Assembly (NCBI GenBank): GCA_035529595.1
Contig: DATKWK010000035.1
Location: 317,904-381,903 of the forward strand
DNA from: Candidatus Bathyarchaeia archaeon
Lineage (GTDB): Bacteria > Patescibacteriota > Microgenomatia > PFEM01 > JAFGMK01
Length of the DNA: 64,000 bases
Direction: 5' to 3'
Below, one piece after another: positions 14,876 through 52,452 of the stretch (within the stretch, counting starts at the first letter, position 1; every line of letters starts with the position of its first letter). The notes under the pieces were generated by a model. It saw nothing but the letters and a program-made list of their open reading frames with translations. It did no database searches and was not told where the DNA came from. The translations under genes and the position numbers were made by a program.

Positions 14876-16402
14876 ATGGCAATTAAAGGGATACCAGAAG
14901 AATCTAAAAAAGAAGATAAACCTCCGGACAGCGGCTCTGAAAAAAAGAATAATAAAACTTTAGACTTCTCGCAAAAGGAGCCTTTTTTAATGCCGGCAAA
15001 CTTCCAAGTAATATCCACAAACGAACTAAACGGTAATAAAAAAAGTGATTTGGTCGTTTATGTGTATAACATAGTCGAAGATGAGTGGTCTTTTTTCAAT
15101 GCCATTTCTGATCTCCGGGAAAGGAAAGAACAGATCGAACGTTGCGAAAGTTACACTGATTGTTTTTTCTTGCGGATGGCTGCCCAGGGAAATTTTGTCT
15201 ATCTTTCTCCTCAAAACATCAGTGCTGATTTCCAGAATTATATCCGGTCTCTTCTCAAATGCAAAGATAGTGAAGTAATTGTTCCCCAAATGAAATCCCA
15301 CCAAATTTGTTTGGATTTTATCAAAGACAAAAAGGCTTTTGGTTTATTTGTTAAAAAAGCCGAAAACTACAAACGGGTAGTTCTTCTAAGTTATGTGGCT
15401 TCTCCCCAGTTTTACCTATTAAAAGAAGCTCTGGTAAGGAAAGGAATCGAAGTTTATACCCCCGAGGCGCCGGAGTTAGATTGCGCTTGGACGGTCAATT
15501 TTTTCGGCAGTAAATCCGGCATCCGCCAACTGGCTCAACAAAGCGTTGCTGCCGAGCCGGATTTTATGATGCCTGACGGCGTCATCTGCGTCGGTAAATT
15601 TGACGCTGCCAAAATTGCCGCCAATAAATACATCAAGCAAAAAGGAGTAGTGGTTAAAACTAACAAAGGCAGTGGCGGAAACGGTGTTTTGATCTTCCGG
15701 GAAAACGATCTGCCTTTTAATTACCTGGAATGCGAGAAGAAAATCAGGGAATATTTAAACCGCGATATCTACTGGGAAAAGTTTCCCATAATCATCGAGG
15801 ACCTGATTAATATCAATTATGCTGTCGGTGGCGGTTTTCCCAATGTCGAGTTCAAAATCCACAAAAACGGCCGGATCGAAATGGTTTTTTACTGTGCCTG
15901 TATGGTAACCGACAAGGGCGCCTATTACGGCTTGGATATTAATGACGAAATCATCAATGACCGAATCGCGACGCGGATTGTGGATACCGGTTATTATATT
16001 GCCGAGCAATACAGCAGCGCCGGCTATCGCGGACATTTTGATGTTGATATGATGGCCGCCAAAAATAACCATATTTACGTTTGTGAGTCAAATACCCGTA
16101 ATACCGGCGGCACCGATATTTATTATCTGGCCAGCAAGCTGGCCGGCAAGGACTTTATGTCCGATGTGTACGTGATCAGCCGTAGCCATTTCCGTTTGTC
16201 GGCCAAAAAAATCTATACTTTTAACCAGATAATTGGACGGTTGGAAACTTTACTTTATTCGTATTCAACCGGAGAAGGGGTGATTGTTAATTCGGAAAAT
16301 ATTCTCAAGGAAAAAGAACTTATCTATACTATTATCGGCCGAGACAAGAAAAGGGCTTATGAGATCGAGGCCAAGATGAGGGAAGCTTTGGCGGTATCCT
16401 GA
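14876..16402 (+). CDS. Hypothetical protein, possibly ATP-grasp-like.
   Basis: 508 aa. Gly-rich VVKTNKGSGGNGVLIF resembles an ATP-grasp nucleotide-binding loop. No other diagnostic motif recognised. Confidence 0.5.
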   Translation: MAIKGIPEESKKEDKPPDSGSEKKNNKTLDFSQKEPFLMPANFQVISTNELNGNKKSDLVVYVYNIVEDEWSFFNAISDLRERKEQIERCESYTDCFFLRMAAQGNFVYLSPQNISADFQNYIRSLLKCKDSEVIVPQMKSHQICLDFIKDKKAFGLFVKKAENYKRVVLLSYVASPQFYLLKEALVRKGIEVYTPEAPELDCAWTVNFFGSKSGIRQLAQQSVAAEPDFMMPDGVICVGKFDAAKIAANKYIKQKGVVVKTNKGSGGNGVLIFRENDLPFNYLECEKKIREYLNRDIYWEKFPIIIEDLININYAVGGGFPNVEFKIHKNGRIEMVFYCACMVTDKGAYYGLDINDEIINDRIATRIVDTGYYIAEQYSSAGYRGHFDVDMMAAKNNHIYVCESNTRNTGGTDIYYLASKLAGKDFMSDVYVISRSHFRLSAKKIYTFNQIIGRLETLLYSYSTGEGVIVNSENILKEKELIYTIIGRDKKRAYEIEAKMREALAVS

Positions 16403-16466
16403 AAACGAAGCAGGCTCCCTGAATAGTCCTCTATTAGAAAGATTGATAACCCGATAAAGGTAATTT

Positions 16467-16922
16467 TCATTTACTTTTTAAGTATTCGGTAATCGTCGGT
16501 GTAAATTGGGGATAACTGTCAATAATCATCCCATGCAAATCAGATATCGCAAACCACCTATAATTAATATGTTCTTGATTATTAACCTTCAGGTCGATTA
16601 AACTTCTGACACAAACTTCAAAAAAAACACAATATTTTGTTTGGTATGGGTCTTTCACTAAAGCAACTGCTACCGGAGAAAATCCAGTTGTTTCTAAACT
16701 AGTTTCTTCTTTAACCTCCCTAATAAACGCTTTTTCCCAATCCTCTCCCTGATTTAATCGGCCCCCTGGGAGAGACCAAAGCTTCGATCTAACTCTCTGG
16801 AGGAGTAAGATTTCCTTCTTCGGATTAAGAATCAAAGCATATTGACCGATGGTTGCCAAAAGGTGATTATTTGTCATTTTATTCCTTATAGCTCTCCGAC
16901 TGAATCCTAAATAGTCTAGCAT
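16467..16922 (-). CDS. NUDIX hydrolase.
   Basis: Perfect Nudix box GGRLNQGEDWEKAFIREVKEETSL (Gx5Ex7REUxEExGU). Confidence 0.85.
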   Translation of the reverse strand: MLDYLGFSRRAIRNKMTNNHLLATIGQYALILNPKKEILLLQRVRSKLWSLPGGRLNQGEDWEKAFIREVKEETSLETTGFSPVAVALVKDPYQTKYCVFFEVCVRSLIDLKVNNQEHINYRWFAISDLHGMIIDSYPQFTPTITEYLKSK

Positions 16923-18681
16923 ATAAACCGTTTTTCTCCATCAGCTCTTTGTGGTTACCTTCTTCAATTACCCGACCGGACTCAAGGACAATAATCCGAT
17001 CCGCTCGTTTAACGGTTGAAAAACGATGAGAAATCAAAAACATCACCCGATTTTTTACGACTCTCACAAGTTTATTAAATACTTCCTCCTCGCTTTCCGG
17101 ATCCATGTTACTGGTCGGTTCATCCAGAATAATCATCTTCGATTTTCTAAATAAAGCCCTTGCTAAAGCAACTTTCTGCCACTGGCCAATCGAAAGATCG
17201 ACTCCTCCCTCAAGCTCTCTGATTAAGGAAGTATCATAGCCTTGCGGTAAACAGGAAAGGTATTTATCTATTCCGGTCAATCTGGCCGCTTTTCTGATAG
17301 CTTTCCTTTTACTAATCCTATCTATATCCCCATAACCGATACTCTCCCAAGCAGAAATACCATAGGTTTCAAAGTCCTGAAAAAGCGCACTGATTAACCG
17401 CCAGTAGGAATAAATATTGAACTTTTCTATATTGATGCCATTAACCAGAATTTGTCCCGATCTGGGAATATAGAAACGGCAAAGAAGTTTCACTAAAGTA
17501 GTCTTACCGGCGCCGTTATGGCCGACGATAGCAATGTTCTCATTGGGATTAACTTTAAAGGAGACATTCTCTAAAACCAATTTCTTAACATTTGGGTATT
17601 GAAAAGAAACATTCTTAAACTCGATTGAATTGATCTTATCAATTAAGGCTTTTTTTCCCCGAGAAGCTTCACCTTGATGATTTAAAACACTAATCAATTT
17701 ATCAATATACACCGAAGATTCTTGCAGTTGTCCCCCCCGATCGATCGCATCTTTCGAGTAATCAACAAATCTTAAACAAGTACTTAAAGCTAATTGCCAA
17801 TCACCAATGGTAAATAGCCCCTTAATTATTCGCCGCAAGAGTAAATAACTGATTGAAAAAACCCCGACCATCGGTAGAACAGCATTAGCTAGTCTCAGTT
17901 TTAAAAGTTCGTGTTCGGTTTTTTCAAACATCCCTATAGTGATCTCCTGAATCTTTTCCAACTGCTTCTTTACCAGAGTTTTTATTCCTAATATTCTTCC
18001 CTCACAACTCCCCCGGCCACTCTCTAAATAGTTAAGATAAATATCTCGTTTCCGACTAAACTTGGCTGAGTTTGAGGCCACGGTTAATGATTTCTTCACA
18101 GCCGGCTTAAGGCCAAGCAAGCGGGGAAAAAGAGTCAACAAAAGAATCAACCAGTAAAAGGGATTGAATTTAATAATCACGGCCGAGGCGATTATCCAAG
18201 AAATTACTGCGGCAATTAAACCGACAGCTTGATCAACGATAGGAGAAATCCTGAACCTGCTTTCTCTCTTTACCAAAACGTATTCATCTTTAAACTGGGA
18301 ATCTTCAACTACCGTTATCGGCAATGAAGCATGTTTATAAGCCAAGTCGATTTCGATGGTGGAAGGCAACTTTTCTCTTAAAATTCTGGTTAAGATTAAG
18401 TGGTGACGAAAAGCAAATTGATCCCAGGAATCAACCAAAAAGTGCAGTAATAAAATTATTGCCACGTATCTGGTTACCAAGGGAACCCCTAAGCTATTAA
18501 TCCTTGTAAGAGCATCAATAATTAATTTGATAAAGTAGGCATTAATAAGAGGATGGATATTCAAATAGATATTATAGAAGGATATTAGCCAGATTTGACC
18601 GCCGACGACTTTCTGGCTATAAGTCCAACAGAACCGGATTACTCGGAAAAGAGATTTTATAAACTGGGCAGTTTTCCTCAT
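16879..18681 (-). CDS. ABC exporter with fused TMD-NBD (MsbA/lipid-multidrug type).
   Basis: N-terminal six-TM domain. Walker A GHNGAGKTTL, signature LSIGQWQKVALARAL, Walker B MIILDEPTSNMD, H-loop ISHR. Overlaps the Nudix gene by 44 nt. Confidence 0.85.
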   Translation of the reverse strand: MRKTAQFIKSLFRVIRFCWTYSQKVVGGQIWLISFYNIYLNIHPLINAYFIKLIIDALTRINSLGVPLVTRYVAIILLLHFLVDSWDQFAFRHHLILTRILREKLPSTIEIDLAYKHASLPITVVEDSQFKDEYVLVKRESRFRISPIVDQAVGLIAAVISWIIASAVIIKFNPFYWLILLLTLFPRLLGLKPAVKKSLTVASNSAKFSRKRDIYLNYLESGRGSCEGRILGIKTLVKKQLEKIQEITIGMFEKTEHELLKLRLANAVLPMVGVFSISYLLLRRIIKGLFTIGDWQLALSTCLRFVDYSKDAIDRGGQLQESSVYIDKLISVLNHQGEASRGKKALIDKINSIEFKNVSFQYPNVKKLVLENVSFKVNPNENIAIVGHNGAGKTTLVKLLCRFYIPRSGQILVNGINIEKFNIYSYWRLISALFQDFETYGISAWESIGYGDIDRISKRKAIRKAARLTGIDKYLSCLPQGYDTSLIRELEGGVDLSIGQWQKVALARALFRKSKMIILDEPTSNMDPESEEEVFNKLVRVVKNRVMFLISHRFSTVKRADRIIVLESGRVIEEGNHKELMEKNGLYARLFRIQSESYKE

Positions 18682-18851
18682 CTGTCATCATTTTACCAGA
18701 AGTTTGTCATTTAGGAAAAGCCAAAATTTATTCTCAAGTTATTCGAGAAAGTGAAATCCGCAGACCACCAAAAGGGAGTGGATTTATCAAAGAATCTGAG
18801 TAGTTACATAATTTTTTCCAGATAGGTATTTTTTTAACATTTTATGATAAG

Positions 18852-28581: not shown

Positions 28582-29121
28582 CTAACTTTTTATCTTGCTA
28601 AGTTTTTCTTTGGCGATCTCAAATACTGGCTGGTGGTGAAATTTTACTTGTATGTTGTCATCAAGTTTAAGACTGACCATCGGAAACATCGGCTGATTCA
28701 TTTTACTTTTATCCCAAGCTAAGTGAGGGTATTTTTGGGTAAAAGATTCAAAGTCTTCGTCAATAATAAATTCCGCATGTTCTAATGCCGACGGGCAAAC
28801 TTGTTCTTCTTTTGGAGCGATTAATTCTAAGGCAGTAATAGAGTAGTTTTTATAAAACAGGGGTTGTTTGAGCATGAAAAGTCCAACCCGCCGGCCGCCA
28901 ACTAAGTTTTCGTCTAAAAAGTCTCCTTCTTTTTGTAACTCTTGTTTTAACTGGTCATAGTCCTCATTCGAGGAAGCCTGGTAACCAAGATGGTCCATTT
29001 CATACTGAGAAATATCGATACCAACCTCGTTTAGTTTTTGAAAGAAAAAGTTTAAGAAAGTAGTCTGGTCAAGTTTAATCATAGTGATGATTTTAACACC
29101 GGCGTGCCAAGGGTAAAACAA
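28582..29121 (-). CDS. Hypothetical protein. Its N-terminal third is duplicated at 33146-33408.
   Basis: 179 aa. Nucleotides 28836-29100 are near-identical to 33146-33400. Confidence 0.5.
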   Translation of the reverse strand: MFYPWHAGVKIITMIKLDQTTFLNFFFQKLNEVGIDISQYEMDHLGYQASSNEDYDQLKQELQKEGDFLDENLVGGRRVGLFMLKQPLFYKNYSITALELIAPKEEQVCPSALEHAEFIIDEDFESFTQKYPHLAWDKSKMNQPMFPMVSLKLDDNIQVKFHHQPVFEIAKEKLSKIKS

Positions 29122-32013: not shown

Positions 32014-32108
32014 CTTATTAATTACACCTTCAAGATGCCTTAGATATGATTCTTCTTGTTTTAAGTATACACCCAAATTATCGGTTGCAAGTTTTAGGGA
32101 AGACACCT
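32014..32108. repeat. A-pal family element, complete copy.
   Basis: ACACCTTCAAGATGCCTTAGATATGATTCTTCTTGTTTTAAGTATACACCCAAATTATCGGTTGCAAGTTTTAGGGAAGACACCTTGAGGGTGTAG. Confidence 0.6.
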
Positions 32109-32178
32109 TGAGGGTGTAGTAGGCTAGCTCCGTAAGAAATGCCCTGCGAGACAGACAACGTTTAGCCTTTTTTAAAAG

Positions 32179-32508
32179 TTATTGAGCCAGCTTTGAAAGA
32201 AACATATTCACAAGCGACAAAACGATAGCTGCAATCAAGGCCGTTCTAAATCCTGCAACACTAAAACCGGGCACAATTTTGCTCATTATCATTAAGAGGA
32301 GTGCGTTAATAACAAAAGTGAACAACCCTAATGTTAAAATATTTATCGGTAGCGTCAATAGTATTACTACGGGTTTAACTAACAAAGTTAACAATCCCCA
32401 TACGACTGAAATAACAAGCAAGGCTTGCCAACCACTAACTATAAAACCTGGCACTAAGTATGCGGTCACGTAGAATGCAAGGGCACTGACCAATAATTGT
32501 ATAAACAT
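32179..32508 (-). CDS. Phage-holin family 4-like small membrane protein (YvlD/PF04020-like).
   Basis: 109 aa with 4 TM segments and the pattern ..YLVPGF.V.GW..LL.....GLL...VKP...LLTLP.N..TLGLFTFVINALLL.....VPGF.V.GF..ALIAAIVLSLVN. Confidence 0.55.
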   Translation of the reverse strand: MFIQLLVSALAFYVTAYLVPGFIVSGWQALLVISVVWGLLTLLVKPVVILLTLPINILTLGLFTFVINALLLMIMSKIVPGFSVAGFRTALIAAIVLSLVNMFLSKLAQ

Positions 32509-32811
32509 ATTATTATTCTAAACCACGAACCCTGTACTGTAAATCACTTACTGAATCATCAATTCTACGCCGATAAACCCAGTCTTCCCCTAGTTAACAA
32601 TAGGTAGTATGCTCGCTTAATCCCTGACCTTTATCAAATGCAAAAGGGGTGATTGTTCCAGTCGGTTTATTAATAATTTCTTTGCTGACAACGGAACCCT
32701 CTTGATAATTTATTGTTTGATTAATATTCTTAGAATTGGTCATAAAATAAGATTTTATCACAGAAAAATATCAGCCTAATCAATTAGCTGTATAATTAAT
32801 TAGGTAAAATT

Positions 32812-33030
32812 ATGAAAATATCGGTAATAGTCCATCCGAATTCAAAAAATCCAAGAATAGAAAAAGACTTAATGAGCGTATTACATATTTATGTAAAGGC
32901 ACCGCCATTGGAAGGAAAGGCTAACAAGGCAGTCATTGAAGCATTGGCAATATTTTTTAAAACCAAAAAGGGAAAGATAATCTTAAAACGGGGAGAGAAA
33001 TCGAGAAATAAAGTATTTGAAATAGGCTGA
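32812..33030 (+). CDS. DUF167/YggU-family protein.
   Basis: 72 aa. VKAPPLEGKANKAVIEALAIFFKTKKGKIILKRGEKSRNKVFEI matches the DUF167 core (P.eGkAN.alI..La..). Confidence 0.7.
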   Translation: MKISVIVHPNSKNPRIEKDLMSVLHIYVKAPPLEGKANKAVIEALAIFFKTKKGKIILKRGEKSRNKVFEIG

Positions 33031-33145
33031 AATTTACCGATATTGATTGCTCCCAGGTGGGGCTCAGACTTCAAAAAAATTAGGTTTATAAAATAAAACA
33101 ATGTCAATCCTTATGGGATTAGATTTTTAGATAGTTGTTGAAGCT

Positions 33146-33408
33146 TAATTCCAAGGCAGTAATAGAGTAGTTTTTATAAAACAGGGGTTGTTTGAGTCTG
33201 AAAAGTCTCCTTCTTTTTGTAACTCTTGTTTTAACTGGTCATAGTCCTCATTCGAGGAAGCCTGGTAACCAAGATGATCCATTTCATACTGAGAAATATC
33301 GATACCAACCTCGTTTAGTTTTTGGAAGAAAGAGTTTAAGAAAGTAGTCTGGTCAAGTTTAATCATAGTGATGATTTTAACACCGGCGGCGCTCCAAAGG
33401 AAAGACAC
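33146..33408 (-). pseudogene. Truncated duplicate of the 5' third of gene 28582-29121.
   Basis: About 250 nt near-identical to 28836-29100, with a 45-nt internal deletion. The ORF ends after 87 aa with unrelated residues. Confidence 0.6.
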
Positions 33409-33644
33409 CTTGAAGGTGGTTAACTACCTATTAAAAATAAGGGTAATCTCTACCAAATACCTTTTACTTCAAGATAGATAATTGAAACAATCATCATCAC
33501 AATCATAAAAAGAAAAATATATATAAATCTGGCCTTTTTATTGCGCGGTAGTTTTAAGTAACCCTCTTTAGTAATCAAAGGCGAAAAAACCTTGTGCAAA
33601 ATTTTAATTAAAAAATTTTCCATGCCGGCAATCCTTTTATGATT

Positions 33645-33722
33645 ACACTTTTAAAGTGTCTCAGATTAGCCACTTCTTGTTAAGTATACACCAAAGTTCT
33701 CGGCCGTAAGCTTGATGTTTTC
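33645..33722. repeat. A-pal family element (left hairpin plus core).
   Basis: ACACTTTTAAAGTGTCTCAGATTAGCCACTTCTTGTTAAGTATACACCAAAGTTCTCGGCCGTAAGCTTGATGTTTTC. A right-end-type hairpin (GACACCTTGAAGGTGG) lies at 33398-33424. Confidence 0.55.
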
Positions 33723-34347
33723 AAAAATATCAGCATTAAAGTATCTATCGAGATTTTAAACAGAGTTCTGATTAAATGATGCAAAGGCACTAAGTTCTGA
33801 TACAAAAATTGATAATAAGCCGTTTCTCTGGTGTCGGGATTGGGAACAACCGCTTCCGCAGTTAACTCAGAATACCGATAAAACTATAAAATTCAAACTT
33901 CCGTTTCCATAAAAATCTACCAGCTGATATAATTTGTTGTAAGATTCAAGGTTATCTTTTCTGAAAGTAGAAAATTCCTTAACCTTGGAATTGAAGAAAG
34001 CACTGACACTAAAATTATTCTAATCGGTAAGAAAGTCTGACTGCATATCTTAATCGATTATGACCGAAGATAGATCAACCCAAGAAACCAAATCAAAACC
34101 CCCGACACCTGAGGATATAAAAGAAGCCTACCATTAGCACCAACTATTTAAAGATGGCTGGCTAACTGCCCATGAATTATCAGAACTAAAACCAGGAGAT
34201 AAACCCGGTTCAACTGGCGAAGTTTTTAAGGTCGAGACCAAAAGTCTTCGGGCAATAAAAGCAATTCTCGACAGAGACTTACCCGATGACGAATTTCGAG
34301 CCGGACTGGAAGAAATAAGATCGTTACTACCCCGGCCCTTTGAGAAA

Positions 34348-35973
34348 ATGAAAGGTATGTTGCAAACCCAACCCCATAAAGACATTGATCCGGTTGATCA
34401 TACTCTTTATGCTCTAAATGAATTAGATACCGAAGCTTTATCAAGAGAGGACCGGCTGATAGCCAGAACAGTCTTGATATTTCATGATATTGGGAAAGTT
34501 CACGATGCTTTCAGTCGGGAGCACCCAAGAAGATCAGTTGATATTAGCAGAGACTACTTAGTAAAAACGGGTTATTCTGCCAATCAAGTTAAACGGGTTA
34601 TTCATCATATTTGCTGGCATGACGCGCTTGGTGATGTTGCCAGAATTGATGGAAGAAATATATTTGATGAAAGGGACGTGCTTACCTTTTTTCCAGACGA
34701 AACCGAACTGCGCCTTCATCGGGAGATTGTTATCGCTGACGTTGCCTCGATACCGGATCTGGCAAGATATGTTTCCAATATTCAAATAACCTATCAACGA
34801 CTACTGGAAAAACTGGCTGACCATAGAGGTAAAAAAGCCATTGAACCCGAAAAAGAGCTTCCTTTTGAAACAATCGGCGTTTATCAGTACCATCAAATAT
34901 ATAAAAGCTTAGACCGAACTACGGAATTTGATGATGTCGATATCGTCACCGAGATGGCCTCAAGAAGAGCTGATTTCGAAGCCTTATCAGCCAAGGATCA
35001 GGAAATCGTTGAAAAAACTATTATCCAAGGAATTACCAGCGGCTCCCCCCGAGCCCTGAACGCACTTAAACTGACAGGAAGAGAGACCGATACTACTTTT
35101 ATTGATCAACTAGAAGAAAAATATGACCTAGATTTAGAACCACTCCGAGCCTTAACCTATTTATTTGGCTTCACCTATTTATTATGGGAGTTAAATTGGA
35201 ATGTTCAGGATCGCTATTTACCGAATACCCCAGGATTAATGACCCAAATCAGAGGCAAATTAATCAGGGTACGCACTCTTGCTCAAAAACTTGGTCAATA
35301 CGAACTAGTCGCTACCCATGCAACCACCGAAGAAGGAAAAGTGATGATTGATCAAAGCATGGCCTTATTAAAATCGACCGATTTTAGTTCCCACTATGAA
35401 GGCGAAGGGGTTTACACCGGAATTTTTGGCTGTTTCAGAACCTGGGCCACCGGCGGTTGTTACGAAATGGTCATTGCCTTAGCAGATACACTGCCAATTA
35501 TTTCGAATTATAGAAATCCTGGAGCGATGACTAATAATCTGTGCGAAATGTTGGATATCGAATACGACGGTAGAGCGATCGCCCATGGCCTGGTTCAATG
35601 GTATAAAATGGACTCCGATTATGATGAGATTCCAGAATGGAAAGTTGCTTTACTTGAAAACTTACTAGGATCTCCGGCCGAAATCATAACCGATGAATAC
35701 GATCGTCCTTGCATAACTATGGATACTCAAGAAAATCCGATCATTTGGGCAAGTCTCTGCCGTGGTCTAAGAATAAGACGTTTTATCCCCAAAAAATTCC
35801 TCCACCTTGCCGAGTTTGCTACCAGACAAAAAAGGGATAAATTACCCCAACCAGAAAGACCGGCAACCGAAAGATTAGCAATTAAATATCCCTATGAAGA
35901 AAAGCCAATTCCTATCTTGAGGATTCACGGACTTAGTCCAATGGAACTGGAACGAATGATGGCCGAGGCTTAA
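34348..35973 (+). CDS. HD-domain (metal-dependent phosphohydrolase) protein, 541 aa.
   Basis: N-terminal H...HD motif (VDHTLYAL ... IFHDIGKVHD). The remainder is unassigned. The same frame is open upstream to 34060, apart from a single TAG at 34135-34137. Confidence 0.65.
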   Translation: MKGMLQTQPHKDIDPVDHTLYALNELDTEALSREDRLIARTVLIFHDIGKVHDAFSREHPRRSVDISRDYLVKTGYSANQVKRVIHHICWHDALGDVARIDGRNIFDERDVLTFFPDETELRLHREIVIADVASIPDLARYVSNIQITYQRLLEKLADHRGKKAIEPEKELPFETIGVYQYHQIYKSLDRTTEFDDVDIVTEMASRRADFEALSAKDQEIVEKTIIQGITSGSPRALNALKLTGRETDTTFIDQLEEKYDLDLEPLRALTYLFGFTYLLWELNWNVQDRYLPNTPGLMTQIRGKLIRVRTLAQKLGQYELVATHATTEEGKVMIDQSMALLKSTDFSSHYEGEGVYTGIFGCFRTWATGGCYEMVIALADTLPIISNYRNPGAMTNNLCEMLDIEYDGRAIAHGLVQWYKMDSDYDEIPEWKVALLENLLGSPAEIITDEYDRPCITMDTQENPIIWASLCRGLRIRRFIPKKFLHLAEFATRQKRDKLPQPERPATERLAIKYPYEEKPIPILRIHGLSPMELERMMAEA

Positions 35974-36029
35974 AATCCCCAAAAAATCCATGCAGAAAGT
36001 GCTTTCAAGATGCCTCAGGCCTATCTTTT

Positions 36030-37190
36030 TTATTTAGTCTTTAAGCAGTTCTTATAATAGATTAATAAGGCACCTAAACCGGTTAAAGTAACCAAAATAG
36101 ATAAAAAGAAACCCAAAAACGGAATTTTCATTATTATATAAGTTGCCAGTAACCCGATGGTAAACTTGCCGTACGATGACATTTCTTTCCAGCCAAATCT
36201 GTCGCTGATGATTACCCCGGCACTAATTCCGATTGCCAGTTTGGAAAAATAAACATTTAACATAAGAAAGGTAAAAGCGATTCCGGCTAGGGGCAGGCCG
36301 ATTAAGGTTAGCGCCGCTAAGACCAAAGTCGGCACCGCCAGCACCATAACCAATAGACCAATTCCCAGACTTTTAAAAAATGAATTTTTAACCTGTTCGG
36401 AAACTGCCAAGACCGGTTTTGGAAAAAGTTTTATTAAAATAAAACCGACAATTAAGGCACCCAAAAAGGAAATTAGCTTGAAAACATTTTTTGTCACAGA
36501 AGCGACCCGGGAAAGGTCTTTGTTTATTTTTTTAGGAGATATCGGCTTAGCTTCATATTTTTTAATTTCTCCGGCAACAGTTGCCTTGGAAGACAGGCTA
36601 AAATCTTCATTATCTTCAATTAAGTAAGACAGGTTTTTGCCGATTATGGTCTTTGAGCCGATATCAATCTTACCGCCGCCCAGTCTCGCTTCTCCGCCGA
36701 TTTTTGAATCCAAAATAATCATTCCTGCGCCGATAAAAACATTTCTTCCAACCGGCGCCTGGTTATTTAATGTCCCGCAGCCGGAGATTAATGACCCGCC
36801 GATGCTGCTTTCAGAATCAATATTCAAAATTCCGCTGCCTGAAATGACTGAACCGCGAACCTCTGCCTTGTTTAAATTAATTGAGCCTCCTCCTAGATAA
36901 AGATTTCCGGAAACTAAACCGCCGACGGTCATATTAGCGGCGCCGATATGTAAATTACCGTTAACTACTCCTGATTCTCTGACTGACGCGGCGCCGATAA
37001 AAACATCGCCGTTTACGGTTCCTTCAAGATTCACAGTTTCCGCACCGATAAAAAGATCGTCATTGATTACTTCGTCTTTGGCAATCTCGACAGTGCCTTT
37101 TTCCTGGACAATTACTTTGGCAAGAGTCTTATCGGCAAAAATAAAACAGAATAAAGAAAAGAAAGGCAGAATATAAAATATTTTCTTCAT
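36030..37190 (-). CDS. Bactofilin-like (CcmA/DUF583-type beta-helical repeat) protein with a signal peptide and a C-terminal polytopic membrane anchor.
   Basis: Signal peptide. Repeats of the type VNGDVFIGAASV / VNGNLHIGAANMTV / VSGNLYLGGGSINL. C-terminal 130 aa contain about 4 TM helices. Confidence 0.6.
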   Translation of the reverse strand: MKKIFYILPFFSLFCFIFADKTLAKVIVQEKGTVEIAKDEVINDDLFIGAETVNLEGTVNGDVFIGAASVRESGVVNGNLHIGAANMTVGGLVSGNLYLGGGSINLNKAEVRGSVISGSGILNIDSESSIGGSLISGCGTLNNQAPVGRNVFIGAGMIILDSKIGGEARLGGGKIDIGSKTIIGKNLSYLIEDNEDFSLSSKATVAGEIKKYEAKPISPKKINKDLSRVASVTKNVFKLISFLGALIVGFILIKLFPKPVLAVSEQVKNSFFKSLGIGLLVMVLAVPTLVLAALTLIGLPLAGIAFTFLMLNVYFSKLAIGISAGVIISDRFGWKEMSSYGKFTIGLLATYIIMKIPFLGFFLSILVTLTGLGALLIYYKNCLKTK

Positions 37191-37290
37191 GATTTATATT
37201 ATATTTTAAAAATAATTTTTGAGCAATATTGAATATTTTTTATCTGGCTTTATCAGTAATTTTCTTCATATTCAATAAATCTATAGAATT

Positions 37291-37384
37291 ACACCTTCAG
37301 GGTGTCTCAGATATGGCACTTCTTGTTAAGTATACACCAAAATTACCGGCCGTAAGCTTGAGGGAAGACACTTTGAAGGTACAG
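37291..37384. repeat. A-pal family element, complete copy.
   Basis: ACACCTTCAGGGTGTCTCAGATATGGCACTTCTTGTTAAGTATACACCAAAATTACCGGCCGTAAGCTTGAGGGAAGACACTTTGAAGGT. Confidence 0.6.
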
Positions 37385-37400
37385 TTAGCCGGTTTTATTT

Positions 37401-38366
37401 TCACCTTTGCTGGTTAACAGCTGAAAGAAAATCATATAACTGTCGTTCTGCTGCAATTGACTCCTGATCCCATATTCGATTTTCTCTTCTAATTGGTTCT
37501 TCAAATTTTCTGGAAAGTTCTACAAATTTTTTAATTCCCCCTTGTTCTCTAAATGCTGATGCCATTAATTTAAATGGTAACGAATAATACTCAGCAGAAA
37601 AATATCCTGACTGTAATATTGCTAAAATATCTTCCTCGGTAACCCCGTTTTCAGTAATTTCTTTGTCAATAATTCCTGCTCTTCTAGCTGTATCAATAAC
37701 ATCCCTTGCTCCCCCCTTGGCACAATAGTCAGTTAAGCACATAATCAAGGATCCAAGCATTCGCGTTTCCGTCATATAGCCAGAACCAATCGAAAAACTG
37801 ATTCGATTTACTGAGCCAGGGTCCTTATTGATTAACTGAGATTGTTGTACCAGCCCTGATTCTATTAGGACTTGTCTTGTCGTGACTTCGGTTATAGCCT
37901 CCTTGAACCATAATAAACTCCATTCTTTCGATTTTTGACTATATACTTCACCCATTTTAACTGGAACATTATCTTGAACGGCTCTTAGTCCAGCATCATG
38001 TACCTTCTCGTGAGCATACTCTTCTGCAAAATCGCTATCCACGGCAATCTGAATCACTCCATCGTAGTCGCAGAACCCTGCACTCCCAATCCATCGTACA
38101 TATCCTAAGACAATTTGATCCTCATTAAACTGACCAACCGAGACCCCAAACTTTCGAAATATTCTATTCATACCCTCATTGATTATTATTCCTTGCCTAC
38201 ATTGTTCTTTAGTTAACTTTAATTTATTGGGATCTCCATTTTCGGCCAGGGCTCTATTAGAATATTCAGCCCTTTTTTGTTGTGCAGAATAGATACCACG
38301 TTGAGAAAATACATGTACTCGAAGATCAATGTCTTGGTGCGTTGGCTCTTCTGCTATATTATCCAT
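37401..38366 (-). CDS. Hypothetical protein.
   Basis: 321-aa ORF flanked on both sides by A-pal elements. No motif recognised. Confidence 0.45.
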   Translation of the reverse strand: MDNIAEEPTHQDIDLRVHVFSQRGIYSAQQKRAEYSNRALAENGDPNKLKLTKEQCRQGIIINEGMNRIFRKFGVSVGQFNEDQIVLGYVRWIGSAGFCDYDGVIQIAVDSDFAEEYAHEKVHDAGLRAVQDNVPVKMGEVYSQKSKEWSLLWFKEAITEVTTRQVLIESGLVQQSQLINKDPGSVNRISFSIGSGYMTETRMLGSLIMCLTDYCAKGGARDVIDTARRAGIIDKEITENGVTEEDILAILQSGYFSAEYYSLPFKLMASAFREQGGIKKFVELSRKFEEPIRRENRIWDQESIAAERQLYDFLSAVNQQR

Positions 38367-38389
38367 GCTCTGGTAATTTATATATTTGG

Positions 38390-38663
38390 TACACCTTCAA
38401 AATGTCTCAGATTAGACACTTCTTTTATAAGTATACACCAAAATTCTCGGCCGAAAGCTTGATATTTTCACAAATTTTGCATCCTTGTCATCCTAATCCC
38501 GACTTTAGGTCGTGGAGAAGGATCCAGCGAAGCCAAGTCTGACTTGGCGAAGCGCTTACGCTAGATTCCTTGGAATGACAATAGAGTCTTGAAATAGGTT
38601 CTGATTTTTTTAAATCAGTAGAAAAAGTACCAAGGTGTCAAGGGAAAGACACCTTGAAGGTGT
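38390..38663. repeat. A-pal family element carrying a nested B-pal palindrome.
   Basis: Left ACACCTTCAAAATGTCTCAGATTAGACACTTCTTTTATAAGTATACACCAAAATTCTCGGCCGAAAGCTTGA. Right ...AAAAAGTACCAAGGTGTCAAGGGAAAGACACCTTGAAGGTGTT. Interior 38484-38580 is the second B-pal palindrome. Confidence 0.6.
38484..38580. repeat. Imperfect palindromic element, family B-pal, copy 2 (TTGTCATCC...GGAATGACAA), nested in an A-pal element.
   Basis: Terminal arms ttgtcatcc / ggaatgacaa are exact reverse complements. The interior gaaggatccagcgaagccaagtc-tgac-ttggcgaagcgcttacgctagattcc is palindromic. Its right arm matches copy 1 (14677-14768) in reverse orientation. Confidence 0.6.
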
Positions 38664-42315: not shown

Positions 42316-42403
42316 TTAAATCAAAAACAGTGAAAAGGCAAAAAGGGCAATTGGAGAAAAAAAATTCACCGAGGTTCAATGGGAAAAGTACCTTGAAGGT
42401 GGT
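42316..42403. repeat. A-pal family right-end element (TTTAAATCAA..GAAAAGGCAA..TTCACCGAGGTTCAATGGGAAAAGTACCTTGAAGGTGG).
   Basis: About 75% identical over about 80 nt to 28290-28369. Directly abuts the stop of the 42413 gene. Confidence 0.55.
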
Positions 42404-42412
42404 TACCTTTAT

Positions 42413-45259
42413 TCATAGGTTGTATTTGTCTTTTCTTTTTTCAAATGCCGCCTCACCGCCATCAAGAATGTCGCAAGCGTGTTCTCTAATTCCACAAGAC
42501 AGCAAAACAATTTCTTGAGTTTTATCCCTTTCTTTCGTGTACTCTAATGAGCCACTTAGATAATCAAACTTCTGGTTATCTTTATTTTTTCGGTCGTCGC
42601 CGTGCTGATTAGCAACCATGACTTGCTCCGAGTCAGCACCAACGACTAAATTTGCATTATGGCTAACCATAATAATTTGTCGCCTTTTCTTTTGCTCTTT
42701 CAAATAGGGAACAATCGAAAAATACATTGACCGGCTATCAAGGTCGTCCTCTGGCTGGTCAATCAAAAGAGGCCATGTGTCCGATTCTTTGGTTAACAGA
42801 AGGGTAAGCGCAAATAATGCCTGCTTTCCTTCTGTCATCGAACTACTACTGAAACCACCAATTGTGTCGTTTTCCATAGTTGAGTTGAACCGAATATCTT
42901 CAACGAAGGTTAAAACTTCCTTAGCGCAAAGTTGCGAATCTTCATCAAACAACACCTTTTGTTTTTTGGCAAACACGGCATCAAGAAAATTGTGAGGGTC
43001 ACTTCTTATTAAGTCGATTTTTAATAAATCTTTCTCTCTGTCAATAAAATCACTGCTCTCTTTTCTATTAAAGCGTGCGGATAGCTCTTCAAATTTTTGG
43101 GGATGGAATTGAATTTCAACCCCGAAACGGATTTTGCTATCTGACTGCTCAAGTGCAGCAAATTTCGTCTTTAGGGTATCTAGGGCTGAAGTTCTGTCGC
43201 TAACACTTTTTTTAATTAGTTCAGACAAATCTCTTAACTCGGTGTTTTTATCGGCGATTTCCTGTGTCAACTTTTCTATTGCCGATTTTCTTTCCTTCTG
43301 CTTGTCTAACTTCTCGATCAAATCCTGCAATTGCTCGTTTTTCTTACACTTTTCGATTAAATCCTTATTTGAATCGTATAGGGTTTTAATTTCAGACTGA
43401 ACTCGTGACTTCTCCTTATCCAAATCAGATTTATAGGCAAGAATTCTTTTTTGTACCAGCCCGCTAACGGTACTTGACCATTGAGTAACATCTTGGGTAA
43501 TCTTCTTCTGTAAATTTAACGGCAACGACTCGATTGCGGGCATAAAAGAAACTTTCGTAGTAATAGAGATAACCTTATCTTTCCTGTCGCTATCGTCTCG
43601 GTAAATAAATCCTTCAAGTTCGCCAAGCTCTTCATCAATCTTTTTTAATCTTGCTTCCTTGTTATGGATATCCTGACTTAGTTCCTTGTATTTTTTGACG
43701 TCTTCGTCGCTAAGGGAAGCAATTTTCTTAAGCTCATCGATCTTTTTTTCAAAATCCGCAATAACCTTTTCAATAGCTGTTTTGTCACCTTGCTCTTTAA
43801 TCTCTAGTTCTAGAGATCTAACTTCCTCTTTCGTGACAAACCACTTTGTAACTGATTCGGTAATGCTTTTGTTGTAAGTGTCTCTAATATCAATCTGGAG
43901 TCGCTCATAAACTTGTTTAATTTCCGGATAATTCTCAAACAACACAGGTTTAATCATGGCTGTAATATCATCCGGACGACTGCTTAATTCAGCCAGATAA
44001 TTTTGTGGAATATAAACAACTTTTCCGTGTTGCGTTAGTCCGTTACCCCACTCAACGGCAACCTCAAAGTTCACATCTTCCCAACTAACTTTTGCCGCGG
44101 GACCTTCGGGCTTGATCCCCTTTGCGCTTTCAGGGTCAACTGAACAAGCGAGATAGGCCAAAAGCGCTGATTTACCAGACGATCTACTTCCAATAATTGA
44201 GCTAAGGTTATCGTTAAACAGAATTTCATTCGGAAAATCAGAAGTGTTTTTAAAAATTATTTTACGAATAACACGGTCGGGCAACTTTCCACCCGGAGGA
44301 ATCGAGCCCATAAATACTCTTTCGCCGCTAATTGGCTCATAGACAATTTGTTTTAAGCCTTCATAAGTCAAATCGGCCTTTATCCAAGTAATCTCTTTCT
44401 CTACCTCACCTTTAGCATTTACAACTTTTTTGCCTAGGAAGTTGTCAACATCCTCGAAAGAATGCGCATCGCTACCAGACAATACCGGTTTTGGTGCTGT
44501 TTCTTCACCGTTATCTAGGCGTTCTTTATCCGAGAAGTGATCAACATTAGTTGAGCTTCCAAAAAACCCGTGACTAAACTTGTCTATCTCATCAGTAATT
44601 ACCGCCTTTCTCTGTTTGCCTCTAACTTTTCCAGCCACTTTTTCAGTATCCGTTCTAATGCCATCATTGTTTGCGGCGGCAATAATAAGCATATAATCAG
44701 TAAGATCAATCTTACTTCCAAAGGTTGCCTTAATTGCATCCTCTATGAACTGCCTTGTTGTTGTAGCTTTCTCAAAATCTTTGGTTGACGAAAGTTCAGA
44801 AGCCTTTATGTTTTTGCCTGAAAGGTTGTTGGTTTCATTTGTTTTGAGACTACTTAAAAACTCCCCAAGTCTGCTTTTGATATTCGGCATATCAGAATTA
44901 ACAATAAGGTGCAGATTTACTTCCTCCCCAGCTTTATTAACTACATCATTAGTACATACTTCAATATTTGGGAAAAACACTTTTGAGGAGTCGGGGTATT
45001 TATTTTTAAATTTATCTATAAAGGTAAAATAATTATCAACCGAAAAATAATCAGTGATACCAATTGCTACGACATCAGATTCCTCAATCTTCTTACAAAA
45101 TATATCCCAGGGATCACCGTCCTTTAATTTATATTGGTCATTCTTTTTGGTTCCAGGTGTATGAACTTGCAAATCCCATTTTCTCCATAGAGAACCCCGC
45201 GGATCGTTGATTCGTGTGTCTCGATCGTTCTGGTTATTGTTGCCACTACGTTTAGTCAT
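42413..45259 (-). CDS. PHP-domain phosphoesterase fused to an SMC/OLD-like ABC ATPase with a long coiled-coil insert; Ppl-like candidate antiviral defence protein.
   Basis: N-terminal PHP motifs WDLQVHTPGT (DLHVHT-like), GITDYFS, NIEVCTN, NLHLIV. Walker A GSRSSGKSALLAYLA at about aa 370. About 250 aa of E/K-rich coiled coil. C-terminal signature-like SMTEGKQALFAL, Walker B LLIDQPEDDLD, H-loop MVSHNANLV. This architecture (PHP plus ABC ATPase) matches the single-gene 'Ppl' defence system described among recently catalogued anti-phage genes. Confidence 0.65.
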   Translation of the reverse strand: MTKRSGNNNQNDRDTRINDPRGSLWRKWDLQVHTPGTKKNDQYKLKDGDPWDIFCKKIEESDVVAIGITDYFSVDNYFTFIDKFKNKYPDSSKVFFPNIEVCTNDVVNKAGEEVNLHLIVNSDMPNIKSRLGEFLSSLKTNETNNLSGKNIKASELSSTKDFEKATTTRQFIEDAIKATFGSKIDLTDYMLIIAAANNDGIRTDTEKVAGKVRGKQRKAVITDEIDKFSHGFFGSSTNVDHFSDKERLDNGEETAPKPVLSGSDAHSFEDVDNFLGKKVVNAKGEVEKEITWIKADLTYEGLKQIVYEPISGERVFMGSIPPGGKLPDRVIRKIIFKNTSDFPNEILFNDNLSSIIGSRSSGKSALLAYLACSVDPESAKGIKPEGPAAKVSWEDVNFEVAVEWGNGLTQHGKVVYIPQNYLAELSSRPDDITAMIKPVLFENYPEIKQVYERLQIDIRDTYNKSITESVTKWFVTKEEVRSLELEIKEQGDKTAIEKVIADFEKKIDELKKIASLSDEDVKKYKELSQDIHNKEARLKKIDEELGELEGFIYRDDSDRKDKVISITTKVSFMPAIESLPLNLQKKITQDVTQWSSTVSGLVQKRILAYKSDLDKEKSRVQSEIKTLYDSNKDLIEKCKKNEQLQDLIEKLDKQKERKSAIEKLTQEIADKNTELRDLSELIKKSVSDRTSALDTLKTKFAALEQSDSKIRFGVEIQFHPQKFEELSARFNRKESSDFIDREKDLLKIDLIRSDPHNFLDAVFAKKQKVLFDEDSQLCAKEVLTFVEDIRFNSTMENDTIGGFSSSSMTEGKQALFALTLLLTKESDTWPLLIDQPEDDLDSRSMYFSIVPYLKEQKKRRQIIMVSHNANLVVGADSEQVMVANQHGDDRKNKDNQKFDYLSGSLEYTKERDKTQEIVLLSCGIREHACDILDGGEAAFEKRKDKYNL

Positions 45260-45355
45260 TGTTTTTCTCCACCACTTTTATTTCGTCATCTGTAAGTCCG
45301 CAGAGCTTATAAACCATTTGATCAATTTATTTTTCGTATTCGCGGACTTTCGTCC

Positions 45356-52290: not shown

Positions 52291-52416
52291 ATTTCTAAAA
52301 TATACTAAATTAACTTCAATTGTAATATTAAACTGACTTTTCCAGTGCCGTTTTATTTCTTACCTAGCCTTCGATACTAAATATACCTCAAACCAATCTG
52401 AAGGAAACTCTGATTA

Positions 52417-52452
52417 CCAAGGTGTCAAGGGTGAGACACCTTAAAGGTGTAT
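52417..52452. repeat. A-pal family right-end hairpin (CCAAGGTGTCAAGGGTGAGACACCTTAAAGGTGTAT).
   Basis: Near-identical in form to 38627-38663 (CCAAGGTGTCAAGGGAAAGACACCTTGAAGGTGTT). Confidence 0.55.

Follow-up and report, generated by a model that had tools for sequence, protein, structure and literature searches.

A TrlF-family gene joining a PHP-like domain to a Rad50/SMC-like ATPase: a probable stand-alone, mobile defence enzyme with a variant metal site

Ppl is said to have been described as an anti-phage protein by Gao and co-workers in 2020. It protects against the phages T7 and Bas63, and a phage counter-defence gene exists (PMC11482910). According to PMC12904381, Ppl is a single-stranded DNA 3'-5' exonuclease that is held off by nucleoside triphosphates (NTPs) on its PHP and NTPase domains and becomes active when NTPs are depleted and 3'-OH ends are present, as is also stated in PMC13434339. 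Both sources cite Xu et al. (Mol Cell 2026;86:180) for the sensing of 3'-OH overhangs and NTP depletion. The TrlF family takes its name from trlF in the temperature restriction locus trlR-trlF-trlG of Photorhabdus laumondii, in which the temperature-tolerant mutants were all found in trlG (encoding AlbA_2 and HATPase_c_4 domains) and none in trlF (PMC7554251). It is a named family, functionally characterised in the Ppl clade only. Here we describe a TrlF-family gene at positions 42413-45259 of a 64,000-nucleotide stretch of DNA (the window) from contig DATKWK010000035.1 of assembly GCA_035529595.1 (positions 317,904 to 381,903), which carries the label Candidatus Bathyarchaeia archaeon. The gene probably encodes a defence enzyme that stands alone and is spread horizontally, from the same family as the anti-phage protein Ppl.

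The gene is a single uninterrupted open reading frame (ORF) of 948 codons on the minus strand, with an ATG start, a TGA stop and a GGAG motif 9 nt 5' of the ATG. An original prediction, made from the sequence alone, had delimited the same ORF, to which the strand is now added. It had described the product as a Ppl-like fusion of a PHP phosphoesterase and an SMC/OLD-like ABC ATPase. It had also called the mechanism of Ppl unknown, a statement overtaken by the 2026 publication of Xu et al. A protein identical to it is already present in NCBI as a 'hypothetical protein', under a 'Candidatus Bathyarchaeia archaeon' metagenome-assembled genome (MAG). The correct label is TrlF: the NCBIfam model NF045780 (TrlF family AAA-like ATPase) scores 492.3 bits against a curated cutoff of 350 (E 4.7e-147), and the match runs end to end, aligning aa 21-947 with positions 1-944 of the 944 in the model. 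As a comparator we used a genuine Ppl, the PGAP-annotated WP_015059139 from an Escherichia coli IncF plasmid (locus L018 of our survey), which scores 1330 bits with the Ppl model and, over its full length, 477 bits with the TrlF model. Because of this second score, Ppl is best regarded as a clade that lies inside the broad TrlF family or directly next to it. The window gene is an uncharacterised addition to a known and already named family, an ordinary member and not a new kind of system; only its variant PHP site and its coupling to restriction-modification genes go beyond routine annotation.

All of the PHP and ATPase motifs quoted in the original prediction were found in the translation, namely DLQVHT (aa 29-34), GITDY (67-71), NIEVC (98-102) and NLHLIV (115-120) on the PHP side, and the Walker A motif GSRSSGKS (357-364), LLIDQPEDD (831-839) and VSHNANLV (865-872) on the ATPase side. 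A further PHP-type motif, SGSDAHS, lies at aa 261-267. Conservation was assessed in 62 homologues with 42-81% identity to the window protein. Invariant among them are D29, H33, D70, Y71, E100, H117 and D264 in the PHP region, and G357, R359, G362, K363, S364, Q419, D834-D838 and S866 in the ATPase region; H266 (61/62) and H867 (at least 90%) are nearly so. Because of this invariance, both motif sets are taken to be under selection and not to be chance strings. The C-terminal half of the ATPase head contains a signature-like SMTEGKQ (807-813), the Walker B/catalytic segment LLIDQPEDDLD (831-841) and an H-loop, VSHNAN (865-870), which is followed by a conserved C-terminal tail, ILDGGxxAFxxR. The set of ATP-binding and hydrolysis motifs is complete, with Walker A, Q-loop, signature, Walker B/Glu and H-loop all invariant or nearly invariant.

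The AlphaFold2 prediction, built from the 62-sequence alignment, is confident, with a mean predicted local distance difference test score (pLDDT) of 87 and a predicted template modelling score (pTM) of 0.72. Its N-terminal domain (aa ~21-320) is an alpha/beta fold. In the model, the Walker A half of the head is separated from the half with the signature and Walker B by long antiparallel helices that span about 270 residues (aa ~429-701). DSSP resolves them into a helix leading out (445-548) and one leading back (581-701); the arm has about 100 residues in each strand, and its apex contains two short strands (552-554 and 561-563). The apex (aa 549-580) contains no cysteine pair, so it has no CxxC zinc hook, and for this reason the protein is no true Rad50/SbcC. 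Foldseek searches of the PDB matched the head and coiled coil to SMC proteins, JetC of Wadjet, MukB, Rad50, RecN, RecF, cohesin/condensin and LmuB of Lamassu (E 6e-9 to ~1e-3). The N-terminal domain was matched by the PHP domain of RNase AM (7ug9; E 4.5e-4, probability 1.00, TM-target 0.62, root-mean-square deviation 4.8 over 249 columns), as well as by RNase AM 9etk and the PHP domain of DNA polymerase III (Pol III) alpha (4iqj). Sequence and profile searches of the PDB were uninformative (the best match, MsbA, had E 0.0044, and every profile hit was above 0.2), and no Ppl structure was among the entries searched. Pfam SMC_N and AAA_21 gave weak matches only, in the C-terminal half-head. No Toprim domain was hit in Pfam, PADLOC or NCBIfam scans, and the fold matches SMC/Rad50, so that the 'OLD-like' part of the original description has to be given up. 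On the other hand, its central claim of a PHP domain and a split ABC ATPase with a coiled coil in a single gene is borne out by motifs, model and Foldseek alike: the architecture is a PHP-fold domain fused in cis to a split Rad50/SMC-like ABC ATPase with a coiled-coil insertion. The features are listed in Table 1.

Table 1. Coordinates of the TrlF-family gene, its encoded domains and adjoining features in the window.
Feature	Coordinates	Strand	Basis
TrlF-family gene, 948 aa, PHP-like phosphoesterase fused to Rad50/SMC-like ABC ATPase	42413..45259	-	ORF, NCBIfam, AlphaFold2 model
PHP-like domain, aa ~21-320, motifs DLQVH, GITDY, NIEVC, NLHLIV, AAANNDG, SGSDAHS	44300..45199	-	Foldseek, motif register, conservation
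N-terminal half of ABC ATPase head, aa ~321-428, Walker A 357-364, Q-loop Q419	43973..44299	-	Invariant residues, Foldseek
Antiparallel coiled-coil arm, aa ~429-701, non-helical apex aa ~549-580, without CxxC zinc hook	43154..43972	-	Model DSSP, sequence
C-terminal half of ABC head, aa ~702-948	42416..43153	-	Weak Pfam hits, Ppl alignment, invariant columns
Fossil 3' end of Eco57I/TaqI_C-type (type IIG) restriction-modification gene, 82 nt	45260..45341	-	78% DNA identity to L051
Schlafen-group-3/DUF2075 helicase, 617 aa	45356-47209	-	PF09848, 283 bits
Palindromic intergenic repeat copy ('A-pal'), ~36 nt, 10 nt 3' of TrlF stop	42367..42402	+	Repeat family D1

Whether the PHP active site is intact, a point that the original prediction had left to be checked, receives a divided answer. 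Motif correspondence was established by alignment with RNase AM, Ppl and other TrlF proteins; an hhalign comparison of the family profile with E. coli RNase AM placed the motifs in the expected register at negligible probability, and served for motif correspondence only. The ligand residues H33, D70, E100, H117, D264 and H266 are retained, whereas three positions are non-canonical. Q31 replaces the first His of the HxH motif; the position is His in 53 of the 62 relatives, and Gln recurs there in scattered lineages (19 of the 181 sequences in which the motif was found). Y71 stands where Ppl and RNase AM carry the motif-II His, and is Tyr throughout the clade (62/62). N197, within AAANNDG, stands where Ppl has the motif-V 'AH', and is kept in 60/62. 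The motif states are QxH, DY, AAANNDG and DAH in the window protein versus HNH, DH, AH and DAH in Ppl. Because the replacement residues are themselves conserved, the alignment looks like a remodelled metal site, perhaps binding fewer metals, rather than a decayed one.

The TrlF family has a large and patchy distribution. A phmmer search of 1.84 billion cluster representatives returned 1086 clusters at E <= 1e-30 and 2964 at E <= 1e-10, and a scan of GTDB representatives found at least 545 loci, covering Patescibacteria, Actinomycetota, Pseudomonadota, Planctomycetota, Bacteroidota, Bdellovibrionales, Leptospiria and others. Plasmid records with a tblastn match number 1129, and in those that hold a full-length gene it is annotated 'TrlF family AAA-like ATPase'; annotated homologues occur on plasmids of Klebsiella, E. 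coli, Lactococcus, Staphylococcus and Citricoccus. A 22-kb record of Microcystis phage Mwe-JY31 (PP438423.1) contains, at 16108-18786, a full-length homologue annotated as hypothetical (30% identity, 98% coverage), which would be a phage- or satellite-borne member of the family.

Around about 90 related loci from many phyla, all flanking ORFs within 6 kb on either side were clustered (a few loci duplicate the same contig), and no conserved neighbour family was found. The commonest neighbours are serine recombinases (12) and restriction-modification genes (12), the latter comprising HsdR/HsdM-like genes of type I and type IIG genes resembling Eco57I; 4 of the loci contain TrlG-like genes. An 81%-identical copy adjoins genes for T5orf172, an EcoRI-type methylase and GmrSD. 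On a Klebsiella IncFII/IncR plasmid the homologue is accompanied by an Abi gene and by GajA/GajB-like genes, a label inferred from the annotations 'AAA family ATPase' and 'UvrD-helicase'. In the E. coli IncC plasmid pJEF1-OXA-181 (L019:740-11510), a TrlF-TrlG pair lies between hsdR and hsdS of a type I operon, beside a Tn7-like tnsD, and illustrates how defence genes can lie within restriction-modification loci. Other contexts include type IV secretion genes or genes of integrative and conjugative elements (ICEs), such as pilin, TraC/VirB4-like and TraG-like genes, as well as Dcm-Vsr and PLD nucleases. Eco57I-like genes abut more distant homologues too (L046, L100 and L082). These contexts are typical of defence islands and mobile elements; best hits to housekeeping SbcC/RecN in a conserved genomic context, which the original prediction had named as the outcome that would speak against it, were not what we found. 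Even 81%-identical copies sit in unrelated contexts, and at the DNA level the similarity of the copies breaks off a few nucleotides at most from the ORF ends, the pattern expected for a mobile cassette.

A separate observation concerns a DUF2130 protein encoded directly beside TrlF homologues at two unrelated loci, L011:10783-11961 on a metagenomic 1-Mb contig and L016:1093-2376 on a conjugative plasmid of Lactococcus lactis. The protein may be a partner of TrlF in one subgroup.

These lines of evidence favour a single-gene defence enzyme, for which homology to Ppl and analogy to Mre11-Rad50/SbcCD suggest a mode of action. ATP-dependent engagement of the heads would yield a dimer that recognises free DNA ends. 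In healthy cells, NTP binding would keep the nuclease off, whereas during infection falling NTP pools and exposed 3'-OH DNA ends would release the PHP domain. The released domain would then degrade DNA exonucleolytically, and phage replication would be stopped.

Several points weigh against this proposal. Both models used in the Ppl profile search, a check suggested by the original prediction, failed to recognise the protein: NCBIfam NF042955 gives 79.9 bits against a cutoff of 1000, with its best stretch at aa 809-885 only, and PADLOC PDLC02208 gives 57 bits over aa 807-890 only. Pfam PHP (PF02811/PF13263) is not significant for the full protein or for its N-terminal 330 aa, the best match being PHP_C at E 0.23 (aa 256-271). 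The genuine Ppl, too, falls below Pfam PHP significance (E 0.038). As no significant Pfam PHP match exists, the PHP assignment rests on motif pattern and fold; of the profile hits originally expected, the PHP one was thus missing in Pfam, whereas Foldseek matched both PHP and SMC/Rad50 heads. With three canonical metal-ligand His replaced (Q31, Y71 and N197), substrate, polarity and even catalytic competence may differ from those of Ppl. Furthermore, the immediate neighbourhood is weakly defence-like, with a convergent secreted subtilase gene downstream and, beyond the helicase gene upstream, RadC and then a MazG-like gene. In Photorhabdus the role of TrlF itself was left open, since no trlF mutation affected the phenotype (PMC7554251).

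Taken together with the BLASTP alignments of the window protein with Ppl, which cover both ends (34% identity over the C-terminal 137 residues, E 2e-17; 20% over 372 columns from PHP to Walker A, E 7e-6), the profile scores show that the name 'Ppl-like' holds for the architecture and for a distant, real homology, but that the protein is not a Ppl orthologue.

Among the competing explanations, the one that survives best is that the protein serves the mobile elements themselves, either as a Wadjet/SbcCD-like weapon against incoming plasmids or competing elements, or in the processing of ICE or plasmid DNA ends during transfer. Of the 1129 matching plasmid records, 815 are conjugative; the type IV secretion and serine recombinase genes noted above adjoin homologues; and JetC of Wadjet, an anti-plasmid system, is among the best structural matches. 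Such a role is nonetheless unlikely, given that the one tested family member, Ppl, protects against T7 and Bas63 (PMC11482910) and that no kleisin or JetD-like partner was found at the ~90 loci. Genomic context cannot separate an anti-phage function from one in mobile elements, because defence genes are routinely cargo of such elements.

A second explanation emerges from the DNA directly upstream of the gene. The 82-nt tail that abuts the TrlF start consists of about 27 codons with an in-frame TAA (it reads EYEK-stop-IDQMVYKLCGLTDDEIKVVEKNND-stop), and its stop codon overlaps the TrlF start (AATGACTAA). The intact counterpart is found in a Candidatus Collierbacteria contig (L051), in which an Eco57I/TaqI_C gene precedes an 81%-identical TrlF gene, its stop likewise overlapping the TrlF start (AATGACTAA). 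Nealsonbacteria-like loci (L004-L007) keep a shorter, 17-codon remnant, behind an unrelated gene. At the other end, DNA homology among these cassettes stops within 6 nt of the TrlF stop, at 42407-42409. As the tail is intact in L051 and present as a remnant in the window and in L004-L007, the ancestor of this sub-clade must have been coupled to a type IIG restriction-modification gene. That gene has since been replaced; the breakpoints fall within its conserved tail and document the turnover of a defence island directly. More speculatively, the ancestral overlap suggests that TrlF might finish off DNA already cut by restriction enzymes. Type IIG enzymes leave 2-nt 3' overhangs. In its fullest form, this explanation holds that the 'GITDY' subgroup is functionally distinct from Ppl, with a remodelled PHP site and ancestral translational coupling to a type IIG gene, and acts as a post-restriction 'finisher': the Rad50-like module would recognise the type IIG overhangs, leaving the cut DNA to be destroyed at the variant PHP site. 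We consider so specific a role quite doubtful, while if true it would link restriction and DNA-end-sensing immunity mechanistically.

The replaced ligands invite a third explanation, in which the PHP domain of this clade is no nuclease at all. It would instead be a nucleotide- or end-sensing regulatory module or a small-phosphoester hydrolase, and the protein would work solely by binding or clamping DNA in an ATP-dependent manner, or else via an unlinked effector. PHP domains lose catalysis upon ligand loss, as in E. coli Pol III alpha. Q31, Y71 and N197, together with the lack of Pfam PHP significance, point in this direction, as does the statement in PMC12904381 that NTPs bind the Ppl PHP domain as inhibitors. 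However, the substituted positions 71 and 197 are almost invariant and the other ligands are kept, which speaks for a remodelled site and not for decay; position 31 toggles between His and Gln, suggesting that both are tolerated; and no conserved partner effector was found at the ~90 loci. A non-nuclease PHP domain is therefore improbable. The weakest alternative, a housekeeping double-strand-break repair enzyme analogous to SbcCD/Mre11-Rad50 with its nuclease in cis, would accord with the structural matches to Rad50, RecN and RecF and with the Mre11-Rad50-like pairing of nuclease and ATPase, but it is very hard to reconcile with the patchy occurrence across phyla, plasmids and a phage record, the unrelated contexts of even 81%-identical copies, the cassette-like ends of DNA homology and the absent zinc hook.

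The preferred reading, a stand-alone defence enzyme, leaves the window's other features to be described. The gene for the Schlafen-group-3 helicase lies 96 nt upstream of the TrlF gene on the same strand. Its product shows weak PADLOC matches to PDC-S41, Nhi and AbiO, and its unannotated N-terminal ~260 aa contain a PD-(D/E)xK-like motif, RIDVLL...ELKQW; it is probably an independent nuclease-helicase defence candidate. As a functional partner of TrlF it was rejected, since it is missing beside the 81%-identical copies and in all ~90 related loci. TrlG, the founding TrlF partner, carries the other Schlafen-type domain, AlbA_2. The statement that the gene sits next to other defence-type genes is partly true, the neighbours being this helicase with its weak PADLOC matches, RadC, the MazG-like gene and the subtilase.

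The palindromic 'A-pal' repeat, proposed originally as a boundary of the gene, is real, though generic. The family to which it belongs, D1, has 10 copies at 25029-52450 (for instance 38628-38663, 42367-42402 and 52415-52450) with the consensus ACCGAGGTGCCAAGGGAAAAACACCTTGAAGGTGT; all copies have the same orientation, and by ORF coordinates most lie 4-20 nt 3' of unrelated minus-strand genes. The copy at 42367-42402 folds no better than shuffled sequence (z -0.59). Because it lies outside the shared cassette homology and folds no better than its shuffles, we regard it as a generic genomic element and not as part of the TrlF module. D1 repeats may be terminator-like or resemble repetitive extragenic palindromic (REP) elements. 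A second intergenic repeat family, 40-75 nt long and with the pattern ..TTGTTAAGTATACACCAAAATT.TCGGCCGTAAGCTTGA.., is present in 3-4 copies at 32020-38475 (for instance 33642-33715, 37288-37361 and 38389-38462). In addition, stretches of 63 nt and 199 nt at 28821-29104 are duplicated at 33145-33388 with 95-97% identity. This second family and the duplicated stretches are possibly shared promoter or leader regions.

Around the TrlF gene there is no intrinsic-terminator-like site, and promoter-like sites are not in excess. An 8-bp inverted repeat, AAGTCCGC/GCGGACTT, upstream of the TrlF start was rejected as being at chance level (2 matches observed, 1.5 expected). The window is without a transfer RNA gene that could mark an island boundary, and its guanine-plus-cytosine content at 42-50 kb (~0.37), slightly under that of the flanks (~0.38-0.44), gives no convincing island signal. 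The window is bacterial, encoding a bacterial LonA and a type I (S26) signal peptidase, despite the Bathyarchaeia label of the MAG. It is in Patescibacteria (Nealsonbacteria and Collierbacteria) that the TrlF protein has its closest relatives. These observations suggest that the contig is mis-binned or mislabelled.

If the enzyme is active, the gene extends single-gene DNA-end/NTP-sensing immunity of the Ppl/TrlF type to small-genome, Patescibacteria-like bacteria. More broadly, the family numbers more than 1000 clusters at 50% identity, and Ppl represents just one of its clades. A large subgroup of the family bears a systematically altered PHP metal site and is repeatedly found end to start with, or embedded in, restriction-modification loci. 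The general picture of bacterial immunity is unchanged by these results; what is refined is the annotation of a 'hypothetical' protein.

Among known systems, OLD/GajA and the AbiEii-type AAA_21 ATPases share with the window protein a DxPE-type Walker B (LLIDQPEDD), and weak AAA_21/AriA profile matches exist. OLD/GajA proteins differ in having a Toprim domain, in place of which the C-terminus of the window protein forms the signature/Walker B half of an SMC/Rad50-type head. Closer in structure are JetC of Wadjet and LmuB of Lamassu, whose heads and coiled coils are among the closest matches (9qxt, 8dk2, 8q72, 9hqx and 9ux7), LmuB also being a weak PADLOC match. Those systems differ, however, in being multi-subunit, with a kleisin or separate nuclease effectors (JetD and LmuA), none of which is conserved around TrlF loci.

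Mre11-Rad50/SbcCD likewise combines an ABC head split by an antiparallel coiled coil (Foldseek matches 7zr1, 5dac and 9q9i) with a metallo-phosphoesterase nuclease, and by analogy DNA-end recognition is likely to be the common logic. Its nuclease is a separate calcineurin-like subunit, Mre11/SbcD, whereas the window protein carries a PHP fold in cis, and no separate phosphoesterase neighbour was seen in the window or across the ~90 loci. Compared with Rad50/SbcC, the protein has a short coiled coil, with ~100 residues in each strand and no zinc hook, and the gene is accessory and mobile.

The closest likenesses lie within the TrlF family. The window differs from the founding Photorhabdus locus in having no trlG (AlbA_2/HATPase_c_4) or trlR partner, an operon context that is not part of the NF045780 definition. 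The TrlG-linked TrlF of E. coli (L019) keeps the canonical motif-II His, whereas the window protein falls in the 'GITDY' subgroup. Where the window protein has QxH, TDY and AAANNDG, the histidines are retained in Ppl, as HxH, SDH and the motif-V 'AH', and identity in the alignable parts is ~20-34%. On the other hand, Ppl too is a one-gene system: its PHP domain is N-terminal, a Walker A motif follows ~300 residues in, and a helical insertion leads to the same C-terminal tail of DQPEDDLD, SH(N/S)A and GG-x-x-AF. With the TrlF family as defined by NF045780, the window protein shares both the length class and the architecture of a PHP domain joined to an ABC ATPase.

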